A DNA stretch of 24,000 nucleotides from Nitrososphaeraceae archaeon (GCA_019246625.1 JAFAQB010000431.1:1-24000); one strand, 5' to 3'. Positions 283-20,943 are shown, counted from the stretch's first letter. The notes: generated by a model not told the origin, from the sequence alone. Numbers and translations are program-made.

Positions 283-687
283 TTATCGACTACCCCCTTG
301 GTATTGTTCATCGCTGACCTTCTCCATCCAATCGACTGTCTTGCCATCGATCTGTTCCTGAATGGCGATATGAGTCATATCTGTAGTCGAAGTGGCACCA
401 TGCCAATGCTTTTCACTAGGCGGAATCCAAACCACGTCACCAGGACGGATTTCCTCGACAGGGCCATCCCAGCGTTGTGCTAAACCGCAACCAGTTGTCA
501 CGATCAGAATCTGACCTAGCGGATGGGTATGCCACGCGGTACGGGATCCAGGCTCAAATGTAACACTGGCGCCGACTGCCCGCGCTGGATCGTTTGCTTG
601 GAACAGGGGGTCAATTCTCACGCTGCCGGTGAAATAATCAGTCAAGCCTTTAGTTGAAGGCTGGGAGCCGGTTCGTTTAATATCCAT
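283..687 (-). CDS. Cupin-domain protein (bacterial-type small cupin)
   Basis: ATG 687-685 to TAA 285-283, 134 aa. The cupin barrel motifs are [20 protein letters not shown] and [20 protein letters not shown]+C is visibly higher than in the rest of the window. Confidence 0.85.
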
Positions 688-4897: not shown

Positions 4898-5920
4898 TTA
4901 TTCCGTTGTACCGCTATCTCCAAATATGAGCCTCATTTCATCAAAAGTTAGTTTTTCACCGTTTGACATCTTTCTCAACGCAACCTCCTTCAACATGTTC
5001 CATCTTTCCTGATTCTCTTTGTTACGTTTGGTTCTTTCCTGTGTTGCTCCATACCTTGATGCACGTCTTTCCTCGCCTTCTCTTTGTTTTCTTTGTCTAT
5101 GTTGAATGTATTGCATTCGCGACTTTCTAAATTCAATTGCATTCAGTTGGGTCTCCACCATTTCTAATTTTGCTCCGATTTCTCTTATCCCATGAATTTC
5201 TTTTCTCCTCTCTTCGTATAGGCTTTCGCGCAAGTTTAATAATGTATCAAGGCTCGCCTTTAATTTACCAATCTTATTACCAAACTCTGATTTTTGGTCG
5301 AAAATACTATTTATTTTAGTTTTCAAAATCTCGTATCTAGATGAAATATTCCTATAATGATCCTCTTTCTTATGTATTATCTTCAAGGTATGTAGTTTTG
5401 TAGCAATTTCCTTCGATCTAGAAACCAATTTGCGTTCTTCATCTTTTGATAATTTCTTTGTCTGAATGTCATGCTCGATATGCTCCAGAGCCTTGCTCAG
5501 ATTTACGATGTCGTATCTTTCCTTACGCAACTTTGATGTGGCAGCTGATCCTGTCTTGTCATCAAAAGTCTTTATTTTATTTCTAGCTTCAATAAGGCTT
5601 TTCTTGAGTTCCATAAATTTAGCATATTCTGCATCCTTTTGCTCATTAATCTGCTTTAGTACTATTCGCAAATCCTCTAATCGAGTTCTCTCTTCGTCGA
5701 TCTGTATCTTAGTAGATTCGATCTTGTTATTGAGCTCTTGGATTCTTTGATCTCCGTTTTTTTGCTCTTCCAGAAGCGCTTTCTTGAATTCTGATAGGGT
5801 TTTTAGATTAGAATCTATTGAATTCTGATTTTGCGCTGCCGCGTTATTATTATTTCTTGCCGCAGTTGTCGTAGTAGTTGCTGTACTGCTGCTTCCGTTA
5901 CTATGTTGGTCTCGTACCAC
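4898..5920 (-). CDS. Long coiled-coil protein (archaeal COG1340-like), low-complexity N-terminus
   Basis: 340 aa with a GTG start. The body is heptad-like and K/E/R/L-rich throughout. The N-terminus is SSSTATTTTTAARNNNNAAAQNQN and the C-terminal tail is KLTFDEMRLIFG. No enzymatic motif is visible. Confidence 0.7.
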   Translation of the reverse strand: MVRDQHSNGSSSTATTTTTAARNNNNAAAQNQNSIDSNLKTLSEFKKALLEEQKNGDQRIQELNNKIESTKIQIDEERTRLEDLRIVLKQINEQKDAEYAKFMELKKSLIEARNKIKTFDDKTGSAATSKLRKERYDIVNLSKALEHIEHDIQTKKLSKDEERKLVSRSKEIATKLHTLKIIHKKEDHYRNISSRYEILKTKINSIFDQKSEFGNKIGKLKASLDTLLNLRESLYEERRKEIHGIREIGAKLEMVETQLNAIEFRKSRMQYIQHRQRKQREGEERRASRYGATQERTKRNKENQERWNMLKEVALRKMSNGEKLTFDEMRLIFGDSGTTE

Positions 5921-6597: not shown

Positions 6598-7320
6598 TTA
6601 GAATTCTTTGGGCCCGGATGATTTAGAATCTGCAAGCATATTTCGAAACATTGCAGTCTGATTTGAAGCAAAACCCAGAGAAAGCATGTTGCGTAAAATA
6701 ATATATAAGTAGGGAAAATCTTGCCTCATCTCTGATCTGTATCCCTCAAAAAAGGCCTTTTCTATTGTATAGTATCGAAAGCTTTCAAAATCAATAACAC
6801 TTGCTAGGAATGAACCTATATCCATACTTCTAGAGAAGACTGAATCTTTTCTTTGCATAAACCCTAAATCCGTTCTGACAACTAGATTATCCGATGTTAC
6901 AAGATAATTCTGTGACTTATTATCTATAAACACATATCCTGCCTTATGTAACTTTCCAGTTAAAGCTCCTGCTTGAAAAGCTAATGATGGTGTGCCCTTG
7001 CCCTCAGAAAATGCTCTGTAAAGATCACCGCCTTCTACGTATTCTTCAACAAGTGCTGTGTCTGAATAAGATATTAGCCCTGGTGTAGGAATTCCTAACT
7101 GTCCCAAATTTCTTCTCATCGTGTAGCCTTCACTGCTTGTTGTCATCCTTCCAAGTAATGGTGGCGAAGATGGATGTCCCAGAAGTATTGAAATTAAGGT
7201 ATATGCTGATATTAAAAGATACTCGTGAAAGTCCTTGGTTCTTTTATTTCGTTTAACGACGACTTTTTGTCCATTTAACTCTTCTATCGATATGTCTCTT
7301 TGCCAATTGATGAAATACAA
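6598..7320 (-). CDS. Small protein-kinase-fold protein (Bud32/RIO/Kdo-kinase-like)
   Basis: 240 aa. VVVKR supplies the VAIK-like Lys and LVEEYVEGGDL the hinge. The catalytic loop is GYVFIDNKSQNYLV, which keeps D-x-K-x-x-N but has Ile where His usually sits. TDLGF is the DFG-like motif. The start is TTG only. Confidence 0.6.
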   Translation of the reverse strand: MYFINWQRDISIEELNGQKVVVKRNKRTKDFHEYLLISAYTLISILLGHPSSPPLLGRMTTSSEGYTMRRNLGQLGIPTPGLISYSDTALVEEYVEGGDLYRAFSEGKGTPSLAFQAGALTGKLHKAGYVFIDNKSQNYLVTSDNLVVRTDLGFMQRKDSVFSRSMDIGSFLASVIDFESFRYYTIEKAFFEGYRSEMRQDFPYLYIILRNMLSLGFASNQTAMFRNMLADSKSSGPKEF

Positions 7321-7391
7321 CTATGAAAACTATAATATGATACTAGTATAAATTTTCAATATTTAATAAGACGTACTCCCAATCAACGATA

Positions 7392-8072
7392 TTGCAGATA
7401 CACCAAGGATATGGTAACGTCAGGAAATTCTTTAATTCTGAGAATGCCTCTAGTTATGATTCTATCGTACATTTTACTACTTTTGGTCGAGATTCTTCTT
7501 GGAAAAAGCAGATTATAAATATCATCACTAACCAAGGTTCGGTTCTTGATCTTGCTTGTGGAACAGGAATCCTTTCTTCAATGCTTACAGATAATGTTGT
7601 GATGATGAGGGTGATTGGTTTGGATTTGGTATTTGATTATTTACGAATTGCTAAAAAGAAAAGAAAAAATTTCCTTCTTACTAATGGAACAGCAGAAATA
7701 CTGCCTTATAAGTGTGAATGTTTTGATTTTGTAGTATCATCATATCTAGCAAAATACGTCGACATTAAAAGAGTTGTAGATGAATGCTGGCGTATTCTAA
7801 ACCACGACGGTACAATAGTTTTTCATGATTTTACTTATCCAAAAAACATTTTACTGCAGAATTTTTGGAGAGCCTATTTTGTGATTTTGAAAATGATGGG
7901 TTATCTAGTCAAATCGTGGAGGGTTGTTTTCCATGAGTTGTGCCAAGTAATAAGGACTAGTGGCTGGGTTGCACAAATGACGGAGTCGCTTGAGGAGAGA
8001 GGATTTAAAAATGTATCATGCAAGTACTATACATTTGGGATGGCTGCAATCATCTCTGCCATAAAACCATGA
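7392..8072 (+). CDS. UbiE/MenG/COQ5-family SAM-dependent C-methyltransferase
   Basis: 226 aa. The family signature is present end to end: YDSIVHFTTFGRDSSWKK (cf. YDxxNxxxSxGxHRxWR), VLDLACGTG, AEILPYKCECFDFVVSSY, ILNHDGTIVFHDF and the C-terminal YTFGMAAIISAIKP. TTG at 7392 is the only in-frame start. Confidence 0.8.
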   Translation: MQIHQGYGNVRKFFNSENASSYDSIVHFTTFGRDSSWKKQIINIITNQGSVLDLACGTGILSSMLTDNVVMMRVIGLDLVFDYLRIAKKKRKNFLLTNGTAEILPYKCECFDFVVSSYLAKYVDIKRVVDECWRILNHDGTIVFHDFTYPKNILLQNFWRAYFVILKMMGYLVKSWRVVFHELCQVIRTSGWVAQMTESLEERGFKNVSCKYYTFGMAAIISAIKP

Positions 8073-8794
8073 ATAAAGATACCCGTTTAAATGAATGGTT
8101 CGTACCAAAATTTGGGCCTCTCAGGTTTCGGATTTTTATAGGGTTACTGTTCATTCCATATACTGGGATGTGTATATCCTTTACAATAATAGGTTCCATG
8201 CTATCCAATAATATAGCGTGGGATCGAGTCGGAGCACTTGTTCTTATATATGCACTGGCCCTTGGAATATCTGCTCATGCAGCTGATGGTCTAGGTTCAC
8301 GAAAGACAAAGCCTTGGGGTAATTACTTTAATAAGAAACAGTTATGGCTATTAGTAATATTGGGCCTAGTGGTGGCATATTCCATAGGGATTTATTATAT
8401 GGTGCTTTATGTACCATTACTCTGGCTAATAGCTATTCTAGAAGGATTTTTTATTTTTACATATAATTTCGAATTATTCAATGGATATTTTCATAATGAT
8501 TTGTGGTTTTCAATCGCTTGGGGTGTGTTGCCGCTATTGGCTGGGTTTATAATGCAAACAAATTCAATTGGAATTATGCCATTAGCTTTCTCTGCTATTG
8601 CGGGTGTTATTAGCTATATAGAAATTAAGATATCTAGACCTTATAAAGAATTAAAAAAAGGAATTGTACAAGATGATTGTCGTGTGAAAAGATTGGAAAC
8701 CGGTCTTAAAACAATTAGTTTGGCAACTATAGCGTTTGCTAGTGTGTCAGTTATTTATAGGCTCTTGTCAGATCATCATTTTTTTGATATTTGA
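8069..8794 (+). CDS. Unassigned integral membrane protein, about 7 TM helices
   Basis: ATG at 8069 overlaps the upstream TGA (ATGA at 8069-8072), and I prefer it to the track start at 8018. The 241-aa product has seven long hydrophobic segments. Polar motifs are AHAADGLGSRK and FHNDLWF. I could not find the canonical UbiA Asp-rich motifs. Confidence 0.7.
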   Translation: MNKDTRLNEWFVPKFGPLRFRIFIGLLFIPYTGMCISFTIIGSMLSNNIAWDRVGALVLIYALALGISAHAADGLGSRKTKPWGNYFNKKQLWLLVILGLVVAYSIGIYYMVLYVPLLWLIAILEGFFIFTYNFELFNGYFHNDLWFSIAWGVLPLLAGFIMQTNSIGIMPLAFSAIAGVISYIEIKISRPYKELKKGIVQDDCRVKRLETGLKTISLATIAFASVSVIYRLLSDHHFFDI

Positions 8795-8811
8795 AGTGTT
8801 TGTGTAAGATA

Positions 8812-9306
8812 ATGGCTGTAGTTTCTATAGATATAGAAGATTTCAGAAGCATGATAGAAATAATTTCTGATCTTGAACATAAATCGAACCATAAACTCCA
8901 TTTGTTTGAAAAAATCCTCTTAGCTGAAACTGGAACTGTAGAGCAAGTCTTGAGTATACTGACAAATTCTGAGATTGTAGTAAAAATTTTGAAACAAAAG
9001 GAATCCTATCAATTAATTGAGCGGGAAGTAAATATCATTAACAAAAAAACAGGTAAAAAGCTAGGATATGCGAGATCAAATATTATTCCTTCTAATTTGC
9101 CTTATGAAATAATAAGCCAGATAAGACGTAAGGATGCTGGGATAGGGAGCATTATTACAACTGCTGAACTAGAGACATTCAGAAAAATCCTCAGAATAGG
9201 ATATAATTCGAGAACTAAATCAGTTTTTAGAATATATCAAATTATATATAAAGGAAACATAGGTTTTGAAATAAAGGAAGTTTTTCCGAGATTTGCCAAA
9301 ACTTAA
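8812..9306 (+). CDS. Chorismate pyruvate-lyase-fold protein (UbiC / DUF98 / UTRA-like)
   Basis: ATG at 8812 is preferred to the TTG at 8791. The pattern matches the family: LLAETGTVEQVLSIL (cf. LLxxDGSxTxxLE), IEREVNII, YARSNIIPSNLP, ETFRKILRIGY and RIYQIIYKGNIGFEIKEVFP. Confidence 0.6.
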   Translation: MAVVSIDIEDFRSMIEIISDLEHKSNHKLHLFEKILLAETGTVEQVLSILTNSEIVVKILKQKESYQLIEREVNIINKKTGKKLGYARSNIIPSNLPYEIISQIRRKDAGIGSIITTAELETFRKILRIGYNSRTKSVFRIYQIIYKGNIGFEIKEVFPRFAKT

Positions 9307-9437
9307 CAATAACTATTTTCAAACTGTATTCATTCTACTATAACTTCAAAACTGAACTAACTTCTCTATCTTAGGATCAACCTCATTGTTGTTCTATCAT
9401 GTTGTATCGAAAACTGTTTTTAGGTCTGGTAGAGTAG

Positions 9438-9511
9438 TGGACCGGGTGGGATTTGAACCCACGACCTCAGCAATGCCAATGCCGTATCCTACCGGACTAG
9501 ACGACCGGCCC
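9438..9511 (-). tRNA. tRNA-Ala (anticodon GGC)
   Basis: Hand-folded 74-nt cloverleaf. The acceptor stem is GGGCCGG/CCGGUCC, including the G3:U70 alanine identity pair. The anticodon arm is CGGCA-UUGGCAU-UGCUG and the T arm is GUGGG-UUCAAAU-CCCAC. The discriminator is A. There is no intron and no encoded CCA. Confidence 0.9.
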
Positions 9512-10117: not shown

Positions 10118-11692
10118 ATGAATGCTGGTAAGAGTATAGTTTTAACTGCGGATCGCAGTCTTATGACAAATTACAGAGGAAACTTCCTCTATGGCTTTAT
10201 TGCCTGCGGGCCTTATGAGCTCGTCCCTGAATTTGTATTTGACAAGTTGTTCTGCCCTAGCGTTGAGACTGATCAAAATACTGGAGGAGTCAAGGTTGCC
10301 CAATGTGGGTTAAGAAGAATTGAAGCAGCTCTTTTAAAAGAGTATAAACGCGAGGATATTTTCCTTGCACATCCGGAAATGCTTTACAAATGTATTGGAT
10401 CAGAAACCAAAGTTGTGGGAATTAACGTAATGGATCCACTTGGTATGGCGCCAGTTACTACTACAATGTCGCCTGAAAAACTGTCCTATGTAGCTATGAA
10501 ATTTAAGAAGATGTGTGCATCTATTATTCAATTAAAAAAGAAATTTAAATTCAAAGTCGTAGTTGGCGGAAATGGTGCATGGGAACTAGCAAAGCCTGAC
10601 AGGATGAAAATTCATGGAATTGATACCGTTGTGATAGGAGAAGCTGATGAACTCGCTCTTGACCTTTTCCATGATTTAGAGATAGGTGATGCGCCAGAAT
10701 TATTGCACACTTTTGTTAGAAATATTGAAAATATTCCTATGATTCGTGGCCCGACTATAAATTCTTTGATTGAAGCTATGCGTGGTTGTGGGAGAGGCTG
10801 TGACTTTTGTGACGTTAATAAGCGTTCAAAGAAGGATATTCCATTGGAGCGATTACAGGAGGAGGCTAAAATTAATTTGAAATATGGTTTTGACTCTATA
10901 TGGCTTCAGTCAGATGAGATGCTACTTTATGGATGTGATAATAGAGACTTCATTCCAAATTCCGATGCAATCGTGAATTTATGGAAAGGATTGAAATCCC
11001 TAGGTGCAAACTTTGTAGGAACCACACATATGACGTTATCTGCTGTCGCATCTTCAGCCAGCCTTATCGAGAAACTTTCTAAAATTAATGAAATGGATGT
11101 AAGCGGGAGGTGGCTAGCAACTAATCTTGGTGTAGAGACAGTAGCGCCAAGGATGGTCAAAAAACACCTAGGTATAAAGGCAAAGCCATACCAACCAGAT
11201 GAATGGGGAGCAGTTGTAAGAGAAGGGTGTAAAATTCTAAACCAGAACCACTGGTTTCCGGCACTGACTTTGATTATAGGGTGGCCAGATGAAACGCCAG
11301 ACGAAACACAGTATACAATTGATCTTATTGAAGATTTTAGAGAAATGAATATGAGGGGTCTAGTTGCACCATTGCTTTATCAGGACTTTTCAGAAAGGAA
11401 TTCGATGCACTTTGGAAACCTGAATGAAGCACAGTTTACATTGTTTTGGAAATGCTGGGAGCATAATCTTAGAGTCATCAATGACATCATTCCAATCATT
11501 ATTAGAAATAAGACGTATGGTCCAGCAATGAAAGTATTCATGGCAGGGTTGATAAAAACAGGAACGTGGGCTATACTGAGATATCTTAAAGGATTGTCAA
11601 AAGACCTCTTTAATGGTCAAGTCCCTGAAGACATTATAGATAAATATTCCAGAAAAAGATCCGTGACTGCGTCATTACCACCACGGCTCTGA
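10118..11692 (+). CDS. Radical SAM enzyme with an N-terminal B12-binding-like (Rossmann) domain, function unassigned
   Basis: 524 aa. The CxxxCxxC motif is MRGC224GRGC228DFC231. It is preceded by KVVVGGNGAW...DTVVIGEADE, typical of COG1032-type enzymes. The N-terminus is IVLTADRSLMTNYRGNFLYGFIACGP...AQCGLRRIEAALL. Confidence 0.85.
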   Translation: MNAGKSIVLTADRSLMTNYRGNFLYGFIACGPYELVPEFVFDKLFCPSVETDQNTGGVKVAQCGLRRIEAALLKEYKREDIFLAHPEMLYKCIGSETKVVGINVMDPLGMAPVTTTMSPEKLSYVAMKFKKMCASIIQLKKKFKFKVVVGGNGAWELAKPDRMKIHGIDTVVIGEADELALDLFHDLEIGDAPELLHTFVRNIENIPMIRGPTINSLIEAMRGCGRGCDFCDVNKRSKKDIPLERLQEEAKINLKYGFDSIWLQSDEMLLYGCDNRDFIPNSDAIVNLWKGLKSLGANFVGTTHMTLSAVASSASLIEKLSKINEMDVSGRWLATNLGVETVAPRMVKKHLGIKAKPYQPDEWGAVVREGCKILNQNHWFPALTLIIGWPDETPDETQYTIDLIEDFREMNMRGLVAPLLYQDFSERNSMHFGNLNEAQFTLFWKCWEHNLRVINDIIPIIIRNKTYGPAMKVFMAGLIKTGTWAILRYLKGLSKDLFNGQVPEDIIDKYSRKRSVTASLPPRL

Positions 11693-16207: not shown

Positions 16208-17215
16208 TTACATGCTCCTTTCTACTATAAAATTGGCAGAAGATTCTAGTGCCTTCTTAGCATCTGAATCATCGTAGTTTTCAATTGATTTTATTGCTCT
16301 GTATATGTGTGCTTTTGCAGCATCTCTTACATGTTGATCTATGCCAATGGCAGAAATCGTTTTGGCTGCTTCCTCTAAATCAATACTTGAGGCATCTTTC
16401 GATCTAAATACTTTTAGGATCTTGTCCTTATTTTCACCTTTTGCATAGTTTAATGCGAGAAGGATTGGGTATGTATTTTTACCTTCTCTTATGTCATTTC
16501 CCACTGCCTTGCCAGTAATTTTCGGATCTCCTGTTATTCCGATTAAATCATCAATTAATTGAAATGCAATACCTACATTCCTTCCAAATGATGAAAGGTT
16601 TTCAACATCTTGTACACTGGGATCTTTGGAGGATAATACGCCCAGCGCACAAGAAACCTCAAAAAGAGCCGCAGTCTTCTTGCCAATCATGTTAATATAT
16701 TGAGATTCATGTGAAAGTATTCTGTTTGATGCCATGTTGACATCAGCAGCCTGGCCTTCACATACATATATGCATGCAGTTGAGAGCTTTGTAACCATTT
16801 CAGATATCGCTTTTTCTGCGAGCCCTACTTCTCTACCATTTACAGCTAATAGTTGAAATGCCTTAGAAAATAAAATGTCTCCTGCAAGAATGGCGAGCGG
16901 GGTACCATAATATTTGTGAACAGTTGGAACGCTGTGGCGCATATCATCATTATCCATTATGTCATCATGAACAAGAGAGAAATTGTGAACCATTTCAACA
17001 GCTGCAGCTGCCGGTAATGCTCTTTTAGAGCTTCCACCAAACATTTCGCATGATTTAACTACCATGAAAGGCCGTAACCGTTTGCCACCGCTTATGATAT
17101 AATGCGCTGATGCCTGGTAAAGTTGCTTTGGCTCTCCTTCTAAAATTGAGAGAATGAATTCTTTTATATCACAAGCATTAGATTCAAGTTCATCTCTAAT
17201 ACTACTTGTCTTCAT
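16208..17215 (-). CDS. idsA: Geranylgeranyl diphosphate synthase (trans-polyprenyl synthetase)
   Basis: The first Asp-rich motif is LVHDDIMDNDDMRH and the second is FQLIDDLIGITGD. I prefer the ATG at 17215, which forms an ATGA overlap with the idi2 stop. The track start TTG at 17221 is the alternative. Confidence 0.9.
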   Translation of the reverse strand: MKTSSIRDELESNACDIKEFILSILEGEPKQLYQASAHYIISGGKRLRPFMVVKSCEMFGGSSKRALPAAAAVEMVHNFSLVHDDIMDNDDMRHSVPTVHKYYGTPLAILAGDILFSKAFQLLAVNGREVGLAEKAISEMVTKLSTACIYVCEGQAADVNMASNRILSHESQYINMIGKKTAALFEVSCALGVLSSKDPSVQDVENLSSFGRNVGIAFQLIDDLIGITGDPKITGKAVGNDIREGKNTYPILLALNYAKGENKDKILKVFRSKDASSIDLEEAAKTISAIGIDQHVRDAAKAHIYRAIKSIENYDDSDAKKALESSANFIVERSM

Positions 17216-18303
17216 CCACAATTAACCCTCTCTGCTAAATCTCCTGTCAATATATATCTTGAGTTTTCCAGTGCTGGAATGTTTTCTGCGCCTAGCAGAA
17301 ACATTGTACTTCTAAGTTCGGCGAGAATAATGTCAGTAAACTTAAACAAACTTTCTTTGGATTCTGCAGCCTTTATTAAAAATGGATAGGCCATAGCACA
17401 CATACCTGCACCCAGTGCAATACATTTTGCAACTTCTAATCCGTTGCGCAATCCACCAGAAGCGATAAGAGGTAGTTTCACTGCCTTTTTTACTTCAATT
17501 AGGCTTAATGCAGTGGGGATACCCCAATCCCAAAACATCTCGCCTAGATGAATTTTAAGGTCGTCATTTGCTGTCTCTGCTCGCAATTTTTCAACTGCTG
17601 CCCAGCTGGTTCCGCCGGCACCTGCTACATTAATTGCAGATATGCCAGCCATCTCTAAGTTTATAGCGACTTCTTTAGAAATTCCTGCACCTACTTCCTT
17701 TACAATTATGGGAACATCGAGTTTTTTCACTAGTTCAGAAATTTTCTCAAGAACTCCTTTGTAATTTGGTTCTCCTTCTGGCTGAACAAGTTCTTGTAAT
17801 GGATTAAGGTGAACTATAAGAGCATTGGCTTGTATCATCTTTATAATTTCTTTTATGCTCTCAACTGTAAGCCCTTTGCCAAGTTGTGCTCCACCAATAT
17901 TTGCCATAAGAAATGCAGTAGGCGCGTTTTTTCTTGCTACAGAATATGTTTCAGCTAATTCCCCGCTTTCTAGACCTGCTCTCTGACTTCCCACACCCAT
18001 GGCAAATTCATACTTTTCTGCAAGTTCAGCCAATCTTCCATTGATATTAATTGCTTCAGGAGTTCCACCAGTCATAGAGTCAATAATAATCGGTGCAGAA
18101 AATTTGTGCTTCATAAAAGTAGTTGAGGTATTAATATCATCGTAGTTAAGTTCGGGTAAGGCATTATGGATAAATTTAACGTATTCTAAATAGTTTGATG
18201 TCGTCTTGGCTTGAACATTTTGTTTCAAAGGTATATCAATGCCCTCTTTCTTACGTTGTTTTATGATTTCAATATCTGATGGCGAACTAAATGTGTCAAT
18301 CAA
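17212..18303 (-). CDS. fni: Isopentenyl-diphosphate delta-isomerase, type 2 (FMN-dependent)
   Basis: 363 aa. Family blocks are QRKKE near the N-terminus, SAPIIIDSMTGG, AMGVGSQR and ASGGLRNGLEVAKCIALGA. The TTG start is 1 nt after the ipk stop. Confidence 0.9.
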   Translation of the reverse strand: MIDTFSSPSDIEIIKQRKKEGIDIPLKQNVQAKTTSNYLEYVKFIHNALPELNYDDINTSTTFMKHKFSAPIIIDSMTGGTPEAININGRLAELAEKYEFAMGVGSQRAGLESGELAETYSVARKNAPTAFLMANIGGAQLGKGLTVESIKEIIKMIQANALIVHLNPLQELVQPEGEPNYKGVLEKISELVKKLDVPIIVKEVGAGISKEVAINLEMAGISAINVAGAGGTSWAAVEKLRAETANDDLKIHLGEMFWDWGIPTALSLIEVKKAVKLPLIASGGLRNGLEVAKCIALGAGMCAMAYPFLIKAAESKESLFKFTDIILAELRSTMFLLGAENIPALENSRYILTGDLAERVNCG

Positions 18304-18304
18304 A

Positions 18305-19078
18305 CTATTTACTACTCCTCAATCCTTTTAGCACTGTACCTTCAAATTCAGTATTAGTTATAGCATTTGCAATTCTTTCAGGCTTTAACCCATTTATCAT
18401 AAATACATCCATTCCACTGCCACATATCTTTAGTGCTTCTGTCACTTTTCTTCGCATACCGCCTGTAACATCTTGTACTACCTTTGAAAAATTGATGGAG
18501 TTGTTAATGTTATCTAATTCTTTGAGAACTTCTTTCTTATTCATGTCCTTATAAATTCCATCAACGTTAAGCGTAAAAATGACTTTCGATGGTCTTAAAG
18601 TTTTGGAAAGGATCGACATCAAGGCATCTCCAGATACGATTGAATATGTTCTATTTCTTATGTGGACAATATCTCCAAATGTTATTGGAATTATGCTGTC
18701 TTCTGCAATGGATTGAAGTTCCTTAATTTTTTTAGCAATTGGTTTATGAGCTAATGTAAAATTTGAAGGCATAATTGCATAAGGGTTCATCCCCACTTTA
18801 ATCATGGAATTAACTATAACTTGGTTTAATGCAATCATTGATTCATGTACTACTGAGATGCCATGTGGATCATATTGATCGGGCCTTGTATGCATATTGT
18901 ATTTTATAGACAAATGATGTCCAAATGAACCACCGCCATGGACTATTATGAGTGGTATTTTCAGGGAGGCAAGAATACGTGAAATATTGTTAATTGCTTC
19001 AAAATTGGCAGTAAGTGGTTTTTCTTTGAAGGTAATTACCGATCCCCCTAGCTTGATCAATATAAGATTACGTACCAT
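18305..19078 (-). CDS. ipk: Isopentenyl phosphate kinase
   Basis: 257 aa of the amino-acid-kinase fold. Motifs are LIKLGGSVITFKEKP, IVHGGGSFGH and DVTGGM. It sits between mvk and idi2, as in archaeal mevalonate clusters. Confidence 0.9.
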   Translation of the reverse strand: MVRNLILIKLGGSVITFKEKPLTANFEAINNISRILASLKIPLIIVHGGGSFGHHLSIKYNMHTRPDQYDPHGISVVHESMIALNQVIVNSMIKVGMNPYAIMPSNFTLAHKPIAKKIKELQSIAEDSIIPITFGDIVHIRNRTYSIVSGDALMSILSKTLRPSKVIFTLNVDGIYKDMNKKEVLKELDNINNSINFSKVVQDVTGGMRRKVTEALKICGSGMDVFMINGLKPERIANAITNTEFEGTVLKGLRSSK

Positions 19079-19114
19079 CTTCTAAAAAGTCATGATTCTA
19101 AGTGGATTTAAAGT

Positions 19115-20092
19115 TTAGTATATTACTAATCCATCATAGTCAATCTTCACTGGTACGCATTCATAGCTATTTCTCTCAATTTCAGAAGTTAACTTTATTT
19201 TATCTTCCTTTGGAGTAAGCACGACCATACTTCCACCTCCGCCTGCACCGGTAAGTTTTACTCCTAAAGCACCATTTTTAAAACAAATTCTTACTATCTG
19301 GTCATTTTTTTTATGAGATACTCTGATCTGCTGTAGTAGTGTATGATTTTCATTCATCAATTTGCCGAGTTTTTTCTCATCGCCAATATTGATTGCAGTT
19401 AAAGCATCTTGACAAATATTATCCGCACAGGAAGATAAGTCTTTAAACAATGATCTATTATCATTCTTGAATTTTTTTACAGAAGAAACTAGATCTCCAG
19501 TACGATGCTTGATCCCAGTATTTACAATGATCAAAGACAAATCTCTTGTTGTTTCAATTGTTTTGAATCCTTTGATTTTGCTATAATATATTAAACCTCC
19601 GAATGTCGAAATGTAACAATCTCCTCCAGAAGAGTCTTTGTGGACTGTCTGTTCTGATTCAATTGCTTTTGAGCACACCCACAGTTTATCTGGTTTGTGA
19701 AAGAGTGAATCTACTGCAGCTACCGTGGCAACACAACACGCTGCAGAAGATCCTAGTCCAACTCCATGTGGTACTTCTGACACTACATTAATATCTATTC
19801 CTAAATTTTGTTTTCTTTCTGAAAGAACATTAACTGCAGACTTGTAGACTGGATCGAGGATTTCTTTTGTATTCTTCCCGCCTTTTATTAAGTTAAACTT
19901 TGAATCTGTATACGATCCTATAATTCCCAAATTTGATGTAATATTGATTGTTTGCGTTTTATTCAAAAAGACAGCGACATGAATACGCCTGTTAATTGCT
20001 GCCATAATTGCATGACTGCCGTATACAACAAAATGTTCACCAAACAAAATAATTTTTGCTGGTGCAGATGCCTTTGCTGAGGTTTTCCTCAT
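19115..20092 (-). CDS. mvk: Mevalonate kinase
   Basis: GHMP kinase with the motifs APAKIILFGEHFVVYG, PHGVGLGSSAACCVA and KLTGAGGGGSMV. I prefer the ATG at 20092, 2 nt after the upstream TGA. A GTG at 20098 (GTGA overlap) is the alternative. Confidence 0.9.
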   Translation of the reverse strand: MRKTSAKASAPAKIILFGEHFVVYGSHAIMAAINRRIHVAVFLNKTQTINITSNLGIIGSYTDSKFNLIKGGKNTKEILDPVYKSAVNVLSERKQNLGIDINVVSEVPHGVGLGSSAACCVATVAAVDSLFHKPDKLWVCSKAIESEQTVHKDSSGGDCYISTFGGLIYYSKIKGFKTIETTRDLSLIIVNTGIKHRTGDLVSSVKKFKNDNRSLFKDLSSCADNICQDALTAINIGDEKKLGKLMNENHTLLQQIRVSHKKNDQIVRICFKNGALGVKLTGAGGGGSMVVLTPKEDKIKLTSEIERNSYECVPVKIDYDGLVIY

Positions 20093-20094
20093 AA

Positions 20095-20943
20095 TCACAC
20101 AAATATAATTGATGAGTACCCTACAACGGCATTCATATCTCCTGTAACATTGCCGCTTGTAGCATATTTTAGTAATTCACCTTTTGTTGCTCCTAAATCC
20201 TTTACTGCTTCCATTGTTGATGCAATTGCACCATAGCCACAAGCGGATACATCAAATCTCTCCAATACTGAATAAAACTTCTGAATATCTAAAGATAAAA
20301 TTGCCTTTATTAATTCACCATCCTTTCTATATGCTTCGCTATTTGATTCATAGTGAGTAAAATCTGAGGATGCAATAAGTAATGTTTTAGAATTTGCTGT
20401 GGTCTGAGCTATGGATTTGCCTATGTTTATTGCAGTCTCTCGATCTTGTAATATTAACACAATTGGTATAATCTTAAACTCATTTCTCTTGATATATTGA
20501 AGAAAAGGAATTTGAACTTCTAGACAATGATCCCTACTGTGTGCGAAATCGTCAAAATCAACTATACCAGAATATCTTGAGATTTCTGATGCTAAAGATG
20601 GATTGATTTCGATTTGACCTAGCGGTGTTTCCCAAAGTCCATTATGCATTATAGCTACCCCAGCGCCAATTCCATAATGGTTAGGACCTATCATCACTAC
20701 ATTATCGAAATCTATCGATGATATTTCATAATATCCATTTGCAGCAACGGCACCAGAATAGACATATCCTGCATGAGGCGAAACAATACCATAAATTCTT
20801 CGTTTAGAGCCAGATGGCGGCATTCTACCTGGACCAAAATTTAGATCTCTAAATGATTGTTCAATTAGTTGTTTAAGTTCTAATGGTTCACTTGGATAGA
20901 AAATCCCAGCTACAACTGAAGTCCTTTTAGGACTATTGTTCAA
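20095..20943 (-). CDS. Memo-like protein (AmmeMemoRadiSam system protein B family)
   Basis: 282 aa. Motifs are VAGIFYP, GIVSPHAGYVYSG, HSRDHCLEVQIPFLQ, ASSDFTHY and ACGYG. The TTG start forms a TTGA overlap with the rps2 stop. Confidence 0.85.
   Translation of the reverse strand: MNNSPKRTSVVAGIFYPSEPLELKQLIEQSFRDLNFGPGRMPPSGSKRRIYGIVSPHAGYVYSGAVAANGYYEISSIDFDNVVMIGPNHYGIGAGVAIMHNGLWETPLGQIEINPSLASEISRYSGIVDFDDFAHSRDHCLEVQIPFLQYIKRNEFKIIPIVLILQDRETAINIGKSIAQTTANSKTLLIASSDFTHYESNSEAYRKDGELIKAILSLDIQKFYSVLERFDVSACGYGAIASTMEAVKDLGATKGELLKYATSGNVTGDMNAVVGYSSIIFV

Follow-up and report, generated by a model that had tools for sequence, protein, structure and literature searches.

A block of three closely packed genes from an ammonia-oxidising archaeon (AOA) is the subject of this analysis. 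The genes lie on the plus strand of a 24,000-nucleotide (nt) stretch of DNA (GCA_019246625.1 JAFAQB010000431.1:1-24000), referred to here as the window, which is AT-rich (G+C ~35%) and by protein similarity belongs to a soil-dwelling ammonia oxidiser of the Nitrososphaeraceae. In order, they encode a UbiE/COQ5-family methyltransferase (gene 1), a membrane protein without the Asp-rich motifs of characterised UbiA enzymes (gene 2), and a protein with a chorismate-lyase fold (gene 3). The reading favoured here, with a confidence a little short of even, is that the trio is transcribed as a single unit and makes a methylated and prenylated aromatic lipid of the isoprenoid-quinone type, bound to the membrane, following the logic of ubiC, ubiA and ubiE. 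The features of the locus are listed below.

7321-7391, plus strand: presumed promoter region, a 71-nt AT-rich intergenic stretch that is the sole upstream non-coding space
7392-8072, plus strand: gene 1, a UbiE/COQ5-family class I S-adenosylmethionine (SAM)-dependent methyltransferase of 226 amino acids (aa) with a TTG start
8069-8072, plus strand: ATGA stop/start overlap of genes 1 and 2, the gene 1 TGA (8070-8072) overlapping the gene 2 ATG (8069)
8069-8794, plus strand: gene 2, a seven-transmembrane (7-TM) protein of 241 aa, probably a remote, truncated UbiA-superfamily relative; ATG at 8069, stop at 8792-8794
8795-8811, plus strand: 17-nt spacer between genes 2 and 3
8812-9306, plus strand: gene 3, a single-domain chorismate-lyase-fold protein (PF01947/DUF98) of 164 aa; ATG at 8812, stop at 9304-9306

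The TTG at 7392 is the earliest candidate start of gene 1 downstream of a stop. For gene 2, the mechanical open reading frame opens at an upstream ATG (8018), but the orthologs all begin MN(E/K)DTRLNEWF, which matches ATG 8069, and the latter is therefore taken as the start. Orthologs of gene 3 begin M(V/A)VVS, matching ATG 8812, and independent gene callers arrived at the same 226-, 241- and 164-aa models on public contigs with identical proteins. Upstream, the unit borders on a divergently oriented Bud32-like gene (6598-7320, minus strand), and downstream on tRNA-Ala(GGC) (9437-9511, minus strand). All sequence-level statements of a first-pass annotation of this stretch hold, including the coordinates, the four-base overlap, the 17-nt gap, and a membrane protein of 241 aa with ~7 helices.

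The two soluble partners

Gene 3 belongs to the chorismate-lyase/DUF98 family, as the first-pass annotation had proposed. It scores 25.8 bits against PF01947 (gathering cut-off, 22), and a precomputed match to this family is present in 108 of the 120 gene 3 homologs listed. A profile of the gene 3 family retrieved one solved structure, that of the DUF98 protein AF1396 of A. fulgidus (PDB 2nwi; E 3.2e-05), and the same protein was the best Foldseek match (TM-score 0.71, E 2.4e-09) of an AlphaFold2 (AF2) model of gene 3 (pLDDT 87). With this predicted structure, E. coli UbiC came second (TM-score 0.50-0.63), ahead of UTRA domains from GntR/HutC regulators. AF1396, the closest solved structure to gene 3, was deposited as a structural-genomics hypothetical protein, and thus gives no functional transfer.

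Two residues of gene 3, R71 and E156, are invariant across 41 orthologs. In an alignment that includes AF1396, they coincide with R76 and E155 of E. coli UbiC (its sequence checked against PDB 1g1b), with which that enzyme binds its substrate and acts on it. Overall identity to UbiC is 19%, and gene 3 falls in the DUF98/Rv2949c branch. An objection raised at first pass was that the protein might instead be a UTRA effector domain without a chorismate pocket. Unlike the GntR/HutC UTRA regulators, gene 3 is a single domain of 164 aa that lacks an extra (winged-helix DNA-binding) domain; it is closer to DUF98/UbiC, and its Arg/Glu pair is invariant. Judged by its sequence and modelled fold, gene 3 would make an aromatic acid, e.g., 4-hydroxybenzoate, from chorismate or something closely derived from it.

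Gene 1 carries the UbiE/MenG/COQ5 signature from end to end, in agreement with the earlier assignment. Its residues 9-225 align with positions 8-233 of the 233-position PF01209 profile (E 3.6e-22), with a score of 79.3 bits against a gathering cut-off of 20.1. The SAM-binding, glycine-rich motif VLDLACGTG occupies residues 50-58, and the protein also matches the Methyltransf_11, _25 and _31 domains.

Conservation of the block and its partners

A scan of relatives, with one genome per species, gave 586 loci, the best 80 of which were used for counts. All 80 are from Nitrososphaeria (Nitrososphaera, Nitrosocosmicus, Nitrosopolaris, Nitrosocaldus and Nitrosomirales). The complete, co-oriented trio is present in 76 of them; of the four without it, three lie at contig ends. 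Genes 1 and 2 are joined by an ATGA-type overlap or by a gap of ≤9 nt in 68 of the 76 complete trios, and genes 2 and 3 are <250 nt apart, as measured between tblastn matches, in 74. Median identity to the window is 49% for gene 1, 61% for gene 2, and 49% for gene 3. Twelve trios have at least 1.5 kb of sequence on each side and none of the window's flanking genes. Since the block persists where its flanks differ, it is conserved for its own sake, beyond synteny at the level of the family, which bears out the expectation at first pass that the three genes travel together. No membrane protein with NDxxDxxxD occurs in any fetched locus, so that the trio has no canonical UbiA beside it.

Two copies of the trio occur in one Nitrososphaeraceae metagenome-assembled genome (MAG; SMAG_U2341, DASTUU01), at loci L044 and L056; one has a window-like context and the other an unrelated one. 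This suggests that the block was duplicated or horizontally acquired.

These data also bear on the alternative that the genes are unrelated in function and have been packed by genome compaction alone. AOA genomes are gene-dense, and within the Nitrososphaeraceae the synteny of the surrounding Bud32-like, NUDIX and radical SAM genes is kept as well. Nevertheless, such an explanation is very improbable, given that the trio persists at the 12 loci where every flank is different, that it moves as a block (one MAG has two copies), that it adjoins conjugation-type ATPase genes in Nitrosocaldus, and that genes 1 and 2 have been inherited together in both archaea and bacteria.

An extended version of the cluster is found in early-branching AOA. 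In both Nitrosocaldus and Nitrosomirales, a short-chain dehydrogenase/reductase (SDR) gene of epimerase/dehydratase type sits on the opposite strand between genes 1 and 2. The full order in Nitrosocaldus (locus L086) is methyltransferase, SDR, gene 2, gene 3, polyprenyl diphosphate synthase, and a flavoprotein of the geranylgeranyl-reductase (GGR) family. In Nitrosomirales (L065), and likewise at L075, the GGR-family reductase follows gene 3, and no full-length polyprenyl synthase was found in the stretches examined. Together, the SDR, the GGR-family reductase, and the Nitrosocaldus polyprenyl synthase point to a defined, probably saturated side chain.

Directly upstream of the Nitrosocaldus methyltransferase (L086, 601-3114; also L064 and L074) are a HerA/TrwB-type conjugation ATPase and a conserved 379-aa protein of no assigned function. 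The presence of the ATPase agrees with the published placement of this module inside an integrative conjugative element (ICE). In Nitrosocaldus cavascurensis, the cargo of ICE-2 was labelled UbiE, RmlB, UbiA, UbiC, GGPS and CHLP (Abby et al. 2018, PMC5797428), a gene set that equals the extended cluster of the Nitrosocaldus MAGs beside their conjugation ATPase genes. That report gives the names as figure-legend labels only; neither the atypical “UbiA” nor the product nor conservation among AOA and bacteria is analysed there (PMC5797428). The orthologs in N. gargensis are Ngar_c21320 (gene 3) and the two genes directly upstream of it. There, gene 1 is annotated as “putative menaquinone biosynthesis methyltransferase UbiE”, gene 2 as “UbiA prenyltransferase” in UniProt but as hypothetical at NCBI, and gene 3 as hypothetical. 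The trio has thus been named before as UbiE/UbiA/UbiC in public annotation, yet is uncharacterised.

Homologs of gene 2 at 53-57% identity extend beyond the AOA, to MAGs labelled Burkholderiales, Betaproteobacteria, Nitrospiria and “Proteobacteria”, as well as to one contig of archaeal character. In four contexts (L006/L007, L090, L096 and L097), the gene 2 homolog is followed by a polyprenyl_synt gene and then by an opposite-strand, UbiE-type methyltransferase gene, and the synthase abuts or overlaps the gene 2 homolog in three of these. In L005, a polyprenyl synthase is present but separated from the gene 2 homolog by a gap, while in L091 and L093 the UbiE-type methyltransferase is directly beside the gene 2 homolog. 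A more distant group, with 30% identity to gene 2, has a methyltransferase immediately upstream. Full-length comparison of gene 1 with the methyltransferases of L090, L091 and L093 gives 35-39% identity, and these three share 48-55% with one another; by sequence, these gene 2-linked bacterial enzymes are orthologous to gene 1. Identity between the polyprenyl synthases that accompany gene 2 in Nitrosocaldus and those that do so in bacteria is 39-41%, and their top family matches include a model for archaeal hexaprenyl diphosphate synthase, below its cut-off.

An all-against-all BLAST of neighbouring genes found no conserved third partner in the bacterial clusters, and in a rough neighbour-joining tree the AOA clade and the nearest bacterial clade are sisters. 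The conserved core is thus a pair, gene 2 and the methyltransferase that belongs to it, commonly joined by a polyprenyl diphosphate synthase; the lyase-like gene is an AOA-specific addition. The connection to isoprenoid quinone-type chemistry drawn in the first-pass annotation gains from these contexts, namely from the polyprenyl synthase and GGR beside the Nitrosocaldus block and from the synthase beside bacterial gene 2 homologs. In a single bacterial case (L097, 5558-7121), the cluster is followed by a di-iron membrane protein of the FA_hydroxylase family and a second UbiE-type methyltransferase, extra genes that would fit further modification of a product.

The membrane protein and competing readings of the module

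Gene 2 represents a family of ~2,000 proteins. It had been regarded as unassigned, a membrane protein that occupies the slot where a UbiA-type prenyltransferase would be expected. Rather, it appears to be a remote UbiA relative, and it had already been named as such in the UniProt entry of N. gargensis and in the Nitrosocaldus ICE-2 figure. Among 43 diverse relatives of gene 2, 15 match the UbiA family PF01040, with a best E of 7.4e-07. When ten relatives were tested separately, all ten matched, with 24-31 bits against a gathering score of 34.2, and the matches are collinear, i.e., residues ~87-200 of the proteins correspond to profile positions 64-180. The remaining weak NCBIfam matches of the family are mostly to MenA models. 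An AF2 model of gene 2 (pLDDT 78.9, pTM 0.76) was searched with Foldseek, and the seven top PDB matches were all AfUbiA chains (4tq3-4tq6; probability 0.96-0.99). Identity to the AfUbiA and ApUbiA structures (PDB 4tq3-4tq6, 4od4) is 12-15%. Gene 2 is thus likely a remote, truncated, 7-TM relative of the UbiA superfamily.

By hydropathy and in the AF2 model, gene 2 has seven transmembrane helices plus a short N-terminal helix. The motifs AHAADGLGSRK (residues 69-79) and FHNDLWF (141-147), both remarked on at first pass, are present. In the UbiA enzymes ApUbiA, AfUbiA, MjDGGGPS and E. coli UbiA, the Asp-rich motifs align with one another; the first ends TM2, and the second follows ~120 residues on (D71 to D191), at the end of TM6. 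The first position corresponds in gene 2 to A-H70-A-A-D73-G, and to AHALDEL in the wider family. The second position, which was placed from the UbiA motif spacing with no significant alignment, corresponds to S189-R190-P-Y-K193. Near-invariant residues across the entire family are P30, Y31, T32, H70, D73, Y132, H142 and S189. A narrower alignment (A4), comprising archaea and the nearest bacterial group, has 65 invariant columns, among them R6, E9, R21, R53, E125, N133, E135, R190, K193, E210 and K214.

The conserved polar residues all fall on the predicted cytoplasmic face, as judged by hydropathy and the positive-inside rule. UbiA active sites are on this face, and here the two soluble partners could reach the conserved residues of gene 2. 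In AfUbiA and ApUbiA, too, a polar pocket lies where the even-numbered transmembrane helices end on the cytoplasmic side, and the collinear PF01040 alignment of gene 2 relatives is a further likeness; the two enzymes differ in carrying the Mg2+-binding motifs NDxxDxxxD and DxxxD, both of which are missing from gene 2. Going by the model, gene 2 would keep a UbiA-like pocket and have lost the Mg2+/diphosphate ligands that are present in every characterised member. With both Asp-rich motifs replaced, its chemistry must differ from that of canonical UbiA enzymes.

Two other assignments of gene 2 were considered and rejected. An NCBIfam match to “NOV95GJQ terpene biosynthesis-related” (E 0.004) was taken as noise, as it occurs in only one of 43 family members. 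A role in forming the cyclohexane ring of crenarchaeol was dismissed in view of the bacterial homologs at 53-57% identity.

The favoured reading, synthesis of a methylated, prenylated aromatic lipid, can be put as a series of steps. The soluble gene 3 protein would convert chorismate, or a close derivative, to an aromatic acid, as its fold and conserved Arg/Glu pair suggest. Gene 2, through its polar pocket on the cytoplasmic side, would then bind a polyprenyl diphosphate and couple the chain to the ring. This second step is proposed on the basis of remote UbiA kinship, adjacency to the lyase, and the fact that bacterial homologs are translationally coupled to a polyprenyl diphosphate synthase, a coupling that is good circumstantial evidence for consumption of polyprenyl diphosphate by gene 2. 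Gene 1 would methylate the ring, in keeping with its UbiE/COQ5 membership and its co-inheritance with gene 2, and in some lineages the GGR-family reductase may saturate the tail. The product may be an undescribed benzenoid prenyl lipid, or may belong to a late or parallel branch in the synthesis of the menaquinone MK6. The data establish the gene models, the family and fold assignments, the conservation of the block and the co-inheritance, whereas substrates, product and the sequence of steps are inferred. In gene 2, HxxD(E) takes the place of the first Asp-rich motif, and the basic residues R190 and K193 that of the second. As to its chemistry, one possibility is that basic residues bind the diphosphate directly while His/Asp residues assist catalysis.

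Two known systems resemble this arrangement. In E. coli, ubiC-ubiA plus UbiE likewise comprise a chorismate-lyase-fold gene beside a UbiA-type membrane gene, along with a UbiE/COQ5 methyltransferase, and the catalytic pair of UbiC is matched in gene 3. In contrast to E. coli UbiA, gene 2 has seven rather than nine transmembrane helices, has neither Asp-rich motif, and misses the PF01040 threshold; further differences from the E. coli system are the branch and 19% identity of gene 3 noted above and the absence of linked UbiD, UbiX and hydroxylase genes. The second system is the methyl-plastoquinone cluster of Leptospirillum, mpqA(UbiA)-mpqC(UbiC-like)-B12 radical SAM methyltransferase-mpqE (PMC11874023), which like the trio brings together UbiA-family, UbiC-like and UbiE-like proteins (PMC11874023). 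Here, gene 1 scores 79 bits against the 335-bit MpqE cut-off, and gene 2 is not a canonical MpqA-type prenyltransferase. The mpq cluster includes a B12 radical SAM gene, and the window, too, has a radical SAM gene, 0.8 kb downstream of the trio (10118-11692), although its B12-type match is sub-cut-off.

A number of results weigh against the favoured reading. The gene 2 protein of the window has no Pfam or NCBIfam family, with no PF01040 match at E values up to 1, and none of its relatives reaches the PF01040 gathering score. The fold check proposed at first pass, a Foldseek search with a predicted structure, put AfUbiA on top, but the match is weak (TM-score 0.41, E ~0.05). An hhalign comparison of the gene 2 family with a four-sequence UbiA alignment (verified PDB fragments plus E. 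coli UbiA) gave no match, the profile being too thin or the kinship too remote. Likewise, a family profile run against PDB sequences found no UbiA chain, only spurious lectin-repeat matches. Because these profile-profile and PDB sequence tests failed and the PF01040 matches are sub-threshold, the kinship is graded as likely but remote. A regular-expression search found neither NDxxD nor DxxxD anywhere in gene 2, in accord with the earlier remark that NDxxDxxxD and DxxxD are missing, and without them canonical, Mg2+-dependent ionisation of a prenyl diphosphate by gene 2 is unlikely.

Other points on the same side concern the partners and the product. Gene 1 falls below every curated NCBIfam cut-off for UbiE, MenG and MpqE, even though these are its best matches (106.9 vs 216 for UbiE, 104.6 vs 158 for TIGR01934, and 79 vs 335 for MpqE), and it is therefore a divergent UbiE/COQ5 member rather than a recognisable ortholog of a characterised quinone methyltransferase. 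No decarboxylase (UbiD/UbiX) or ring hydroxylase gene is linked to the trio in AOA, so that a complete benzoquinone pathway is not encoded at the locus. In the bacterial clusters examined, no lyase gene is linked, and the aromatic acceptor is thus not fixed there. Finally, the menaquinone MK6:0 is the sole Nitrososphaeria quinone named in a paper on AOA quinone content, and a benzenoid product would accordingly be an undetected compound.

The loss of the Asp-rich motifs throughout the family lends itself to another explanation, in which gene 2 is no transferase at all. It would have kept a UbiA-derived fold and lost catalysis by ionisation, and might be a lipid-binding membrane scaffold presenting an isoprenoid substrate to the soluble methyltransferase, or a protonation-type (His/Asp/Tyr) cyclase, isomerase or hydratase, with gene 3 binding a ligand instead of cleaving chorismate. 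H70, D73, Y132, H142 and S189 resemble an acid/base or metal site more than a diphosphate-Mg2+ site, the methyltransferase is the sole universally conserved partner of gene 2, and the chorismate-lyase fold is common to non-catalytic UTRA ligand-binding domains. We consider this explanation unlikely. Many polar residues within the membrane or at its interface are kept between archaea and bacteria (the 65 invariant columns), which argues for catalysis, and the polyprenyl diphosphate synthase that adjoins or overlaps gene 2 suggests the use of a diphosphate substrate. The invariant R190/K193 at the second-motif position, estimated from UbiA motif spacing only, and the catalytic Arg/Glu pair kept in gene 3 tell against it as well.

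A different possibility is that the genes carry out late steps toward MK6:0/6:1, with gene 2 as the MenA/MqnP counterpart that attaches hexaprenyl to dihydroxynaphthoate from the futalosine route, gene 1 as the C2-methyltransferase, the synthase and GGR making and saturating the C30 tail, and gene 3 in an accessory role. In its favour are, besides the standing of MK6:0 as the one quinone named, the archaeal hexaprenyl diphosphate synthase model among the best matches of the linked synthases, the adjoining GGR in Nitrosocaldus and Nitrosomirales, the preponderance of MenA among the weak NCBIfam matches of the gene 2 family, and the menaquinone label on the N. gargensis gene 1 ortholog. Clustering of a polyprenyl synthase with a UbiE-type methyltransferase is also familiar from the hepS-menH-hepT operon of Bacillus. 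Moreover, a GGR paralog of A. fulgidus is a menaquinone-specific prenyl reductase (PMC10821996).

Several features fit poorly with late MK6 synthesis, to which we assign a low probability. Neither the futalosine nor the classical route needs a chorismate lyase, yet in AOA no gene is linked more tightly to gene 2 than gene 3. Gene 2 itself is without the motifs that every characterised MenA/MqnP has, and gene 1 is under all MenG/UbiE cut-offs. The Burkholderiales, Betaproteobacteria and Nitrospiria use ubiquinone or methyl-plastoquinone made by canonical enzymes. Since close bacterial homologs are in MAGs with these labels, the module there looks additional to the main quinone pathway.

The first-pass annotation went further and offered the trio as a new, compact way of making the naphthoquinone head group in AOA menaquinone, one that would replace men/mqn genes. 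All three proteins could plausibly act on chorismate-derived or quinone-type substrates. Literature searches gave little on an assigned AOA menaquinone pathway beyond one survey of marine AOA proteomes (C. symbiosum A and B, and N. maritimus), in which homologs of MqnA were found in one of three, and of MqnC and MqnD each in two of three (Zhi et al. 2014). The scarcity of MqnA leaves room for a non-orthologous, chorismate-acting first enzyme. Even so, a head-group route is improbable and not supported. Three enzyme families of these kinds cannot build a second ring, and known UbiC-fold enzymes yield a benzenoid acid. The reported MqnC and MqnD homologs speak against a replacement of the futalosine route, as does the occurrence of the gene 2/methyltransferase pair, without a lyase, in bacteria that have quinone pathways of their own.

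A more far-reaching reading can also be formulated, which we regard as possible but unlikely. Gene 2 would found an undescribed branch of intramembrane isoprenoid enzymes derived from the UbiA fold, with a His-Asp-Tyr-His centre and basic residues in place of both Mg2+-binding Asp-rich motifs. Along with the UbiE-type methyltransferase that co-evolves with it and, in many cases, a dedicated polyprenyl diphosphate synthase, it would constitute a module exchanged between archaea and bacteria that makes an undescribed methylated prenyl lipid. In AOA, the module would be fed by a DUF98 chorismate lyase and might yield, for example, a benzenoid quinone/quinol beside MK6.

Neighbouring genes and wider significance

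Downstream of the trio, the radical SAM gene (10118-11692, plus strand) encodes a 524-aa protein whose best NCBIfam match, below cut-off, is the B12-binding-domain/radical SAM model TIGR04013. By analogy with the mpq cluster, it was considered as part of the module, and was rejected as probably unrelated because it is linked only within the Nitrososphaeraceae and is far more conserved than the trio (median identity of 87% across 32 Nitrososphaeraceae loci vs 49-61%). It could be an archaeal lipid-modifying enzyme.

An isoprenoid-precursor cluster occupies 16208-20098 of the minus strand, 7 kb from the trio, and continues to 22917. Its genes are as follows.

16208-17221, minus strand: polyprenyl synthetase
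17212-18303, minus strand: FMN-dependent dehydrogenase-family gene, probably type-2 isopentenyl diphosphate isomerase
18305-19078, minus strand: amino-acid-kinase-family gene, probably isopentenyl phosphate kinase
19115-20098, minus strand: GHMP kinase, probably mevalonate kinase

Beyond this cluster are a Memo-like gene, ribosomal protein S2, and enolase. On the other side of the trio, the Bud32-like kinase (6598-7320) has weak, sub-cut-off matches to KEOPS Bud32, and is a stand-alone protein that is not fused to Kae1. A 340-aa, strongly charged, Lys/Glu-rich protein with a low-complexity N-terminus (SSSTATTTTTAARNNNNAAAQNQN) is encoded at 4898-5920 (minus strand); its synteny is kept across the Nitrososphaeraceae, and its orthologs show a weak match to DUF7121. 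The first 1000 nt of the window differ in base composition, with a G+C content of 44.7% vs ~35% elsewhere. They include a cupin-domain gene (283-687, minus strand) and match no Rfam family.

AOA drive nitrification in soils and oceans, and the genes that determine how long and how saturated the tails of their quinones are, and those for the last assembly steps, are without experimental assignment. The operon described here, and especially its six-gene form in Nitrosocaldus, supplies a list of candidates, i.e., a polyprenyl synthase, a prenyl reductase, a membrane coupling enzyme, a methyltransferase, and a supplier of the ring. If the product were ordinary MK6, the outcome would be a useful but unsurprising annotation. 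The importance of the module would rise if gene 2 proved to be metal-independent or no transferase, or if the product were an overlooked quinone of nitrifying archaea. Were gene 2 to transfer or transform prenyl groups without Asp-rich motifs, the known chemistry of the UbiA superfamily would be widened, and some two thousand archaeal and bacterial proteins that now lack annotation would be defined as a family.

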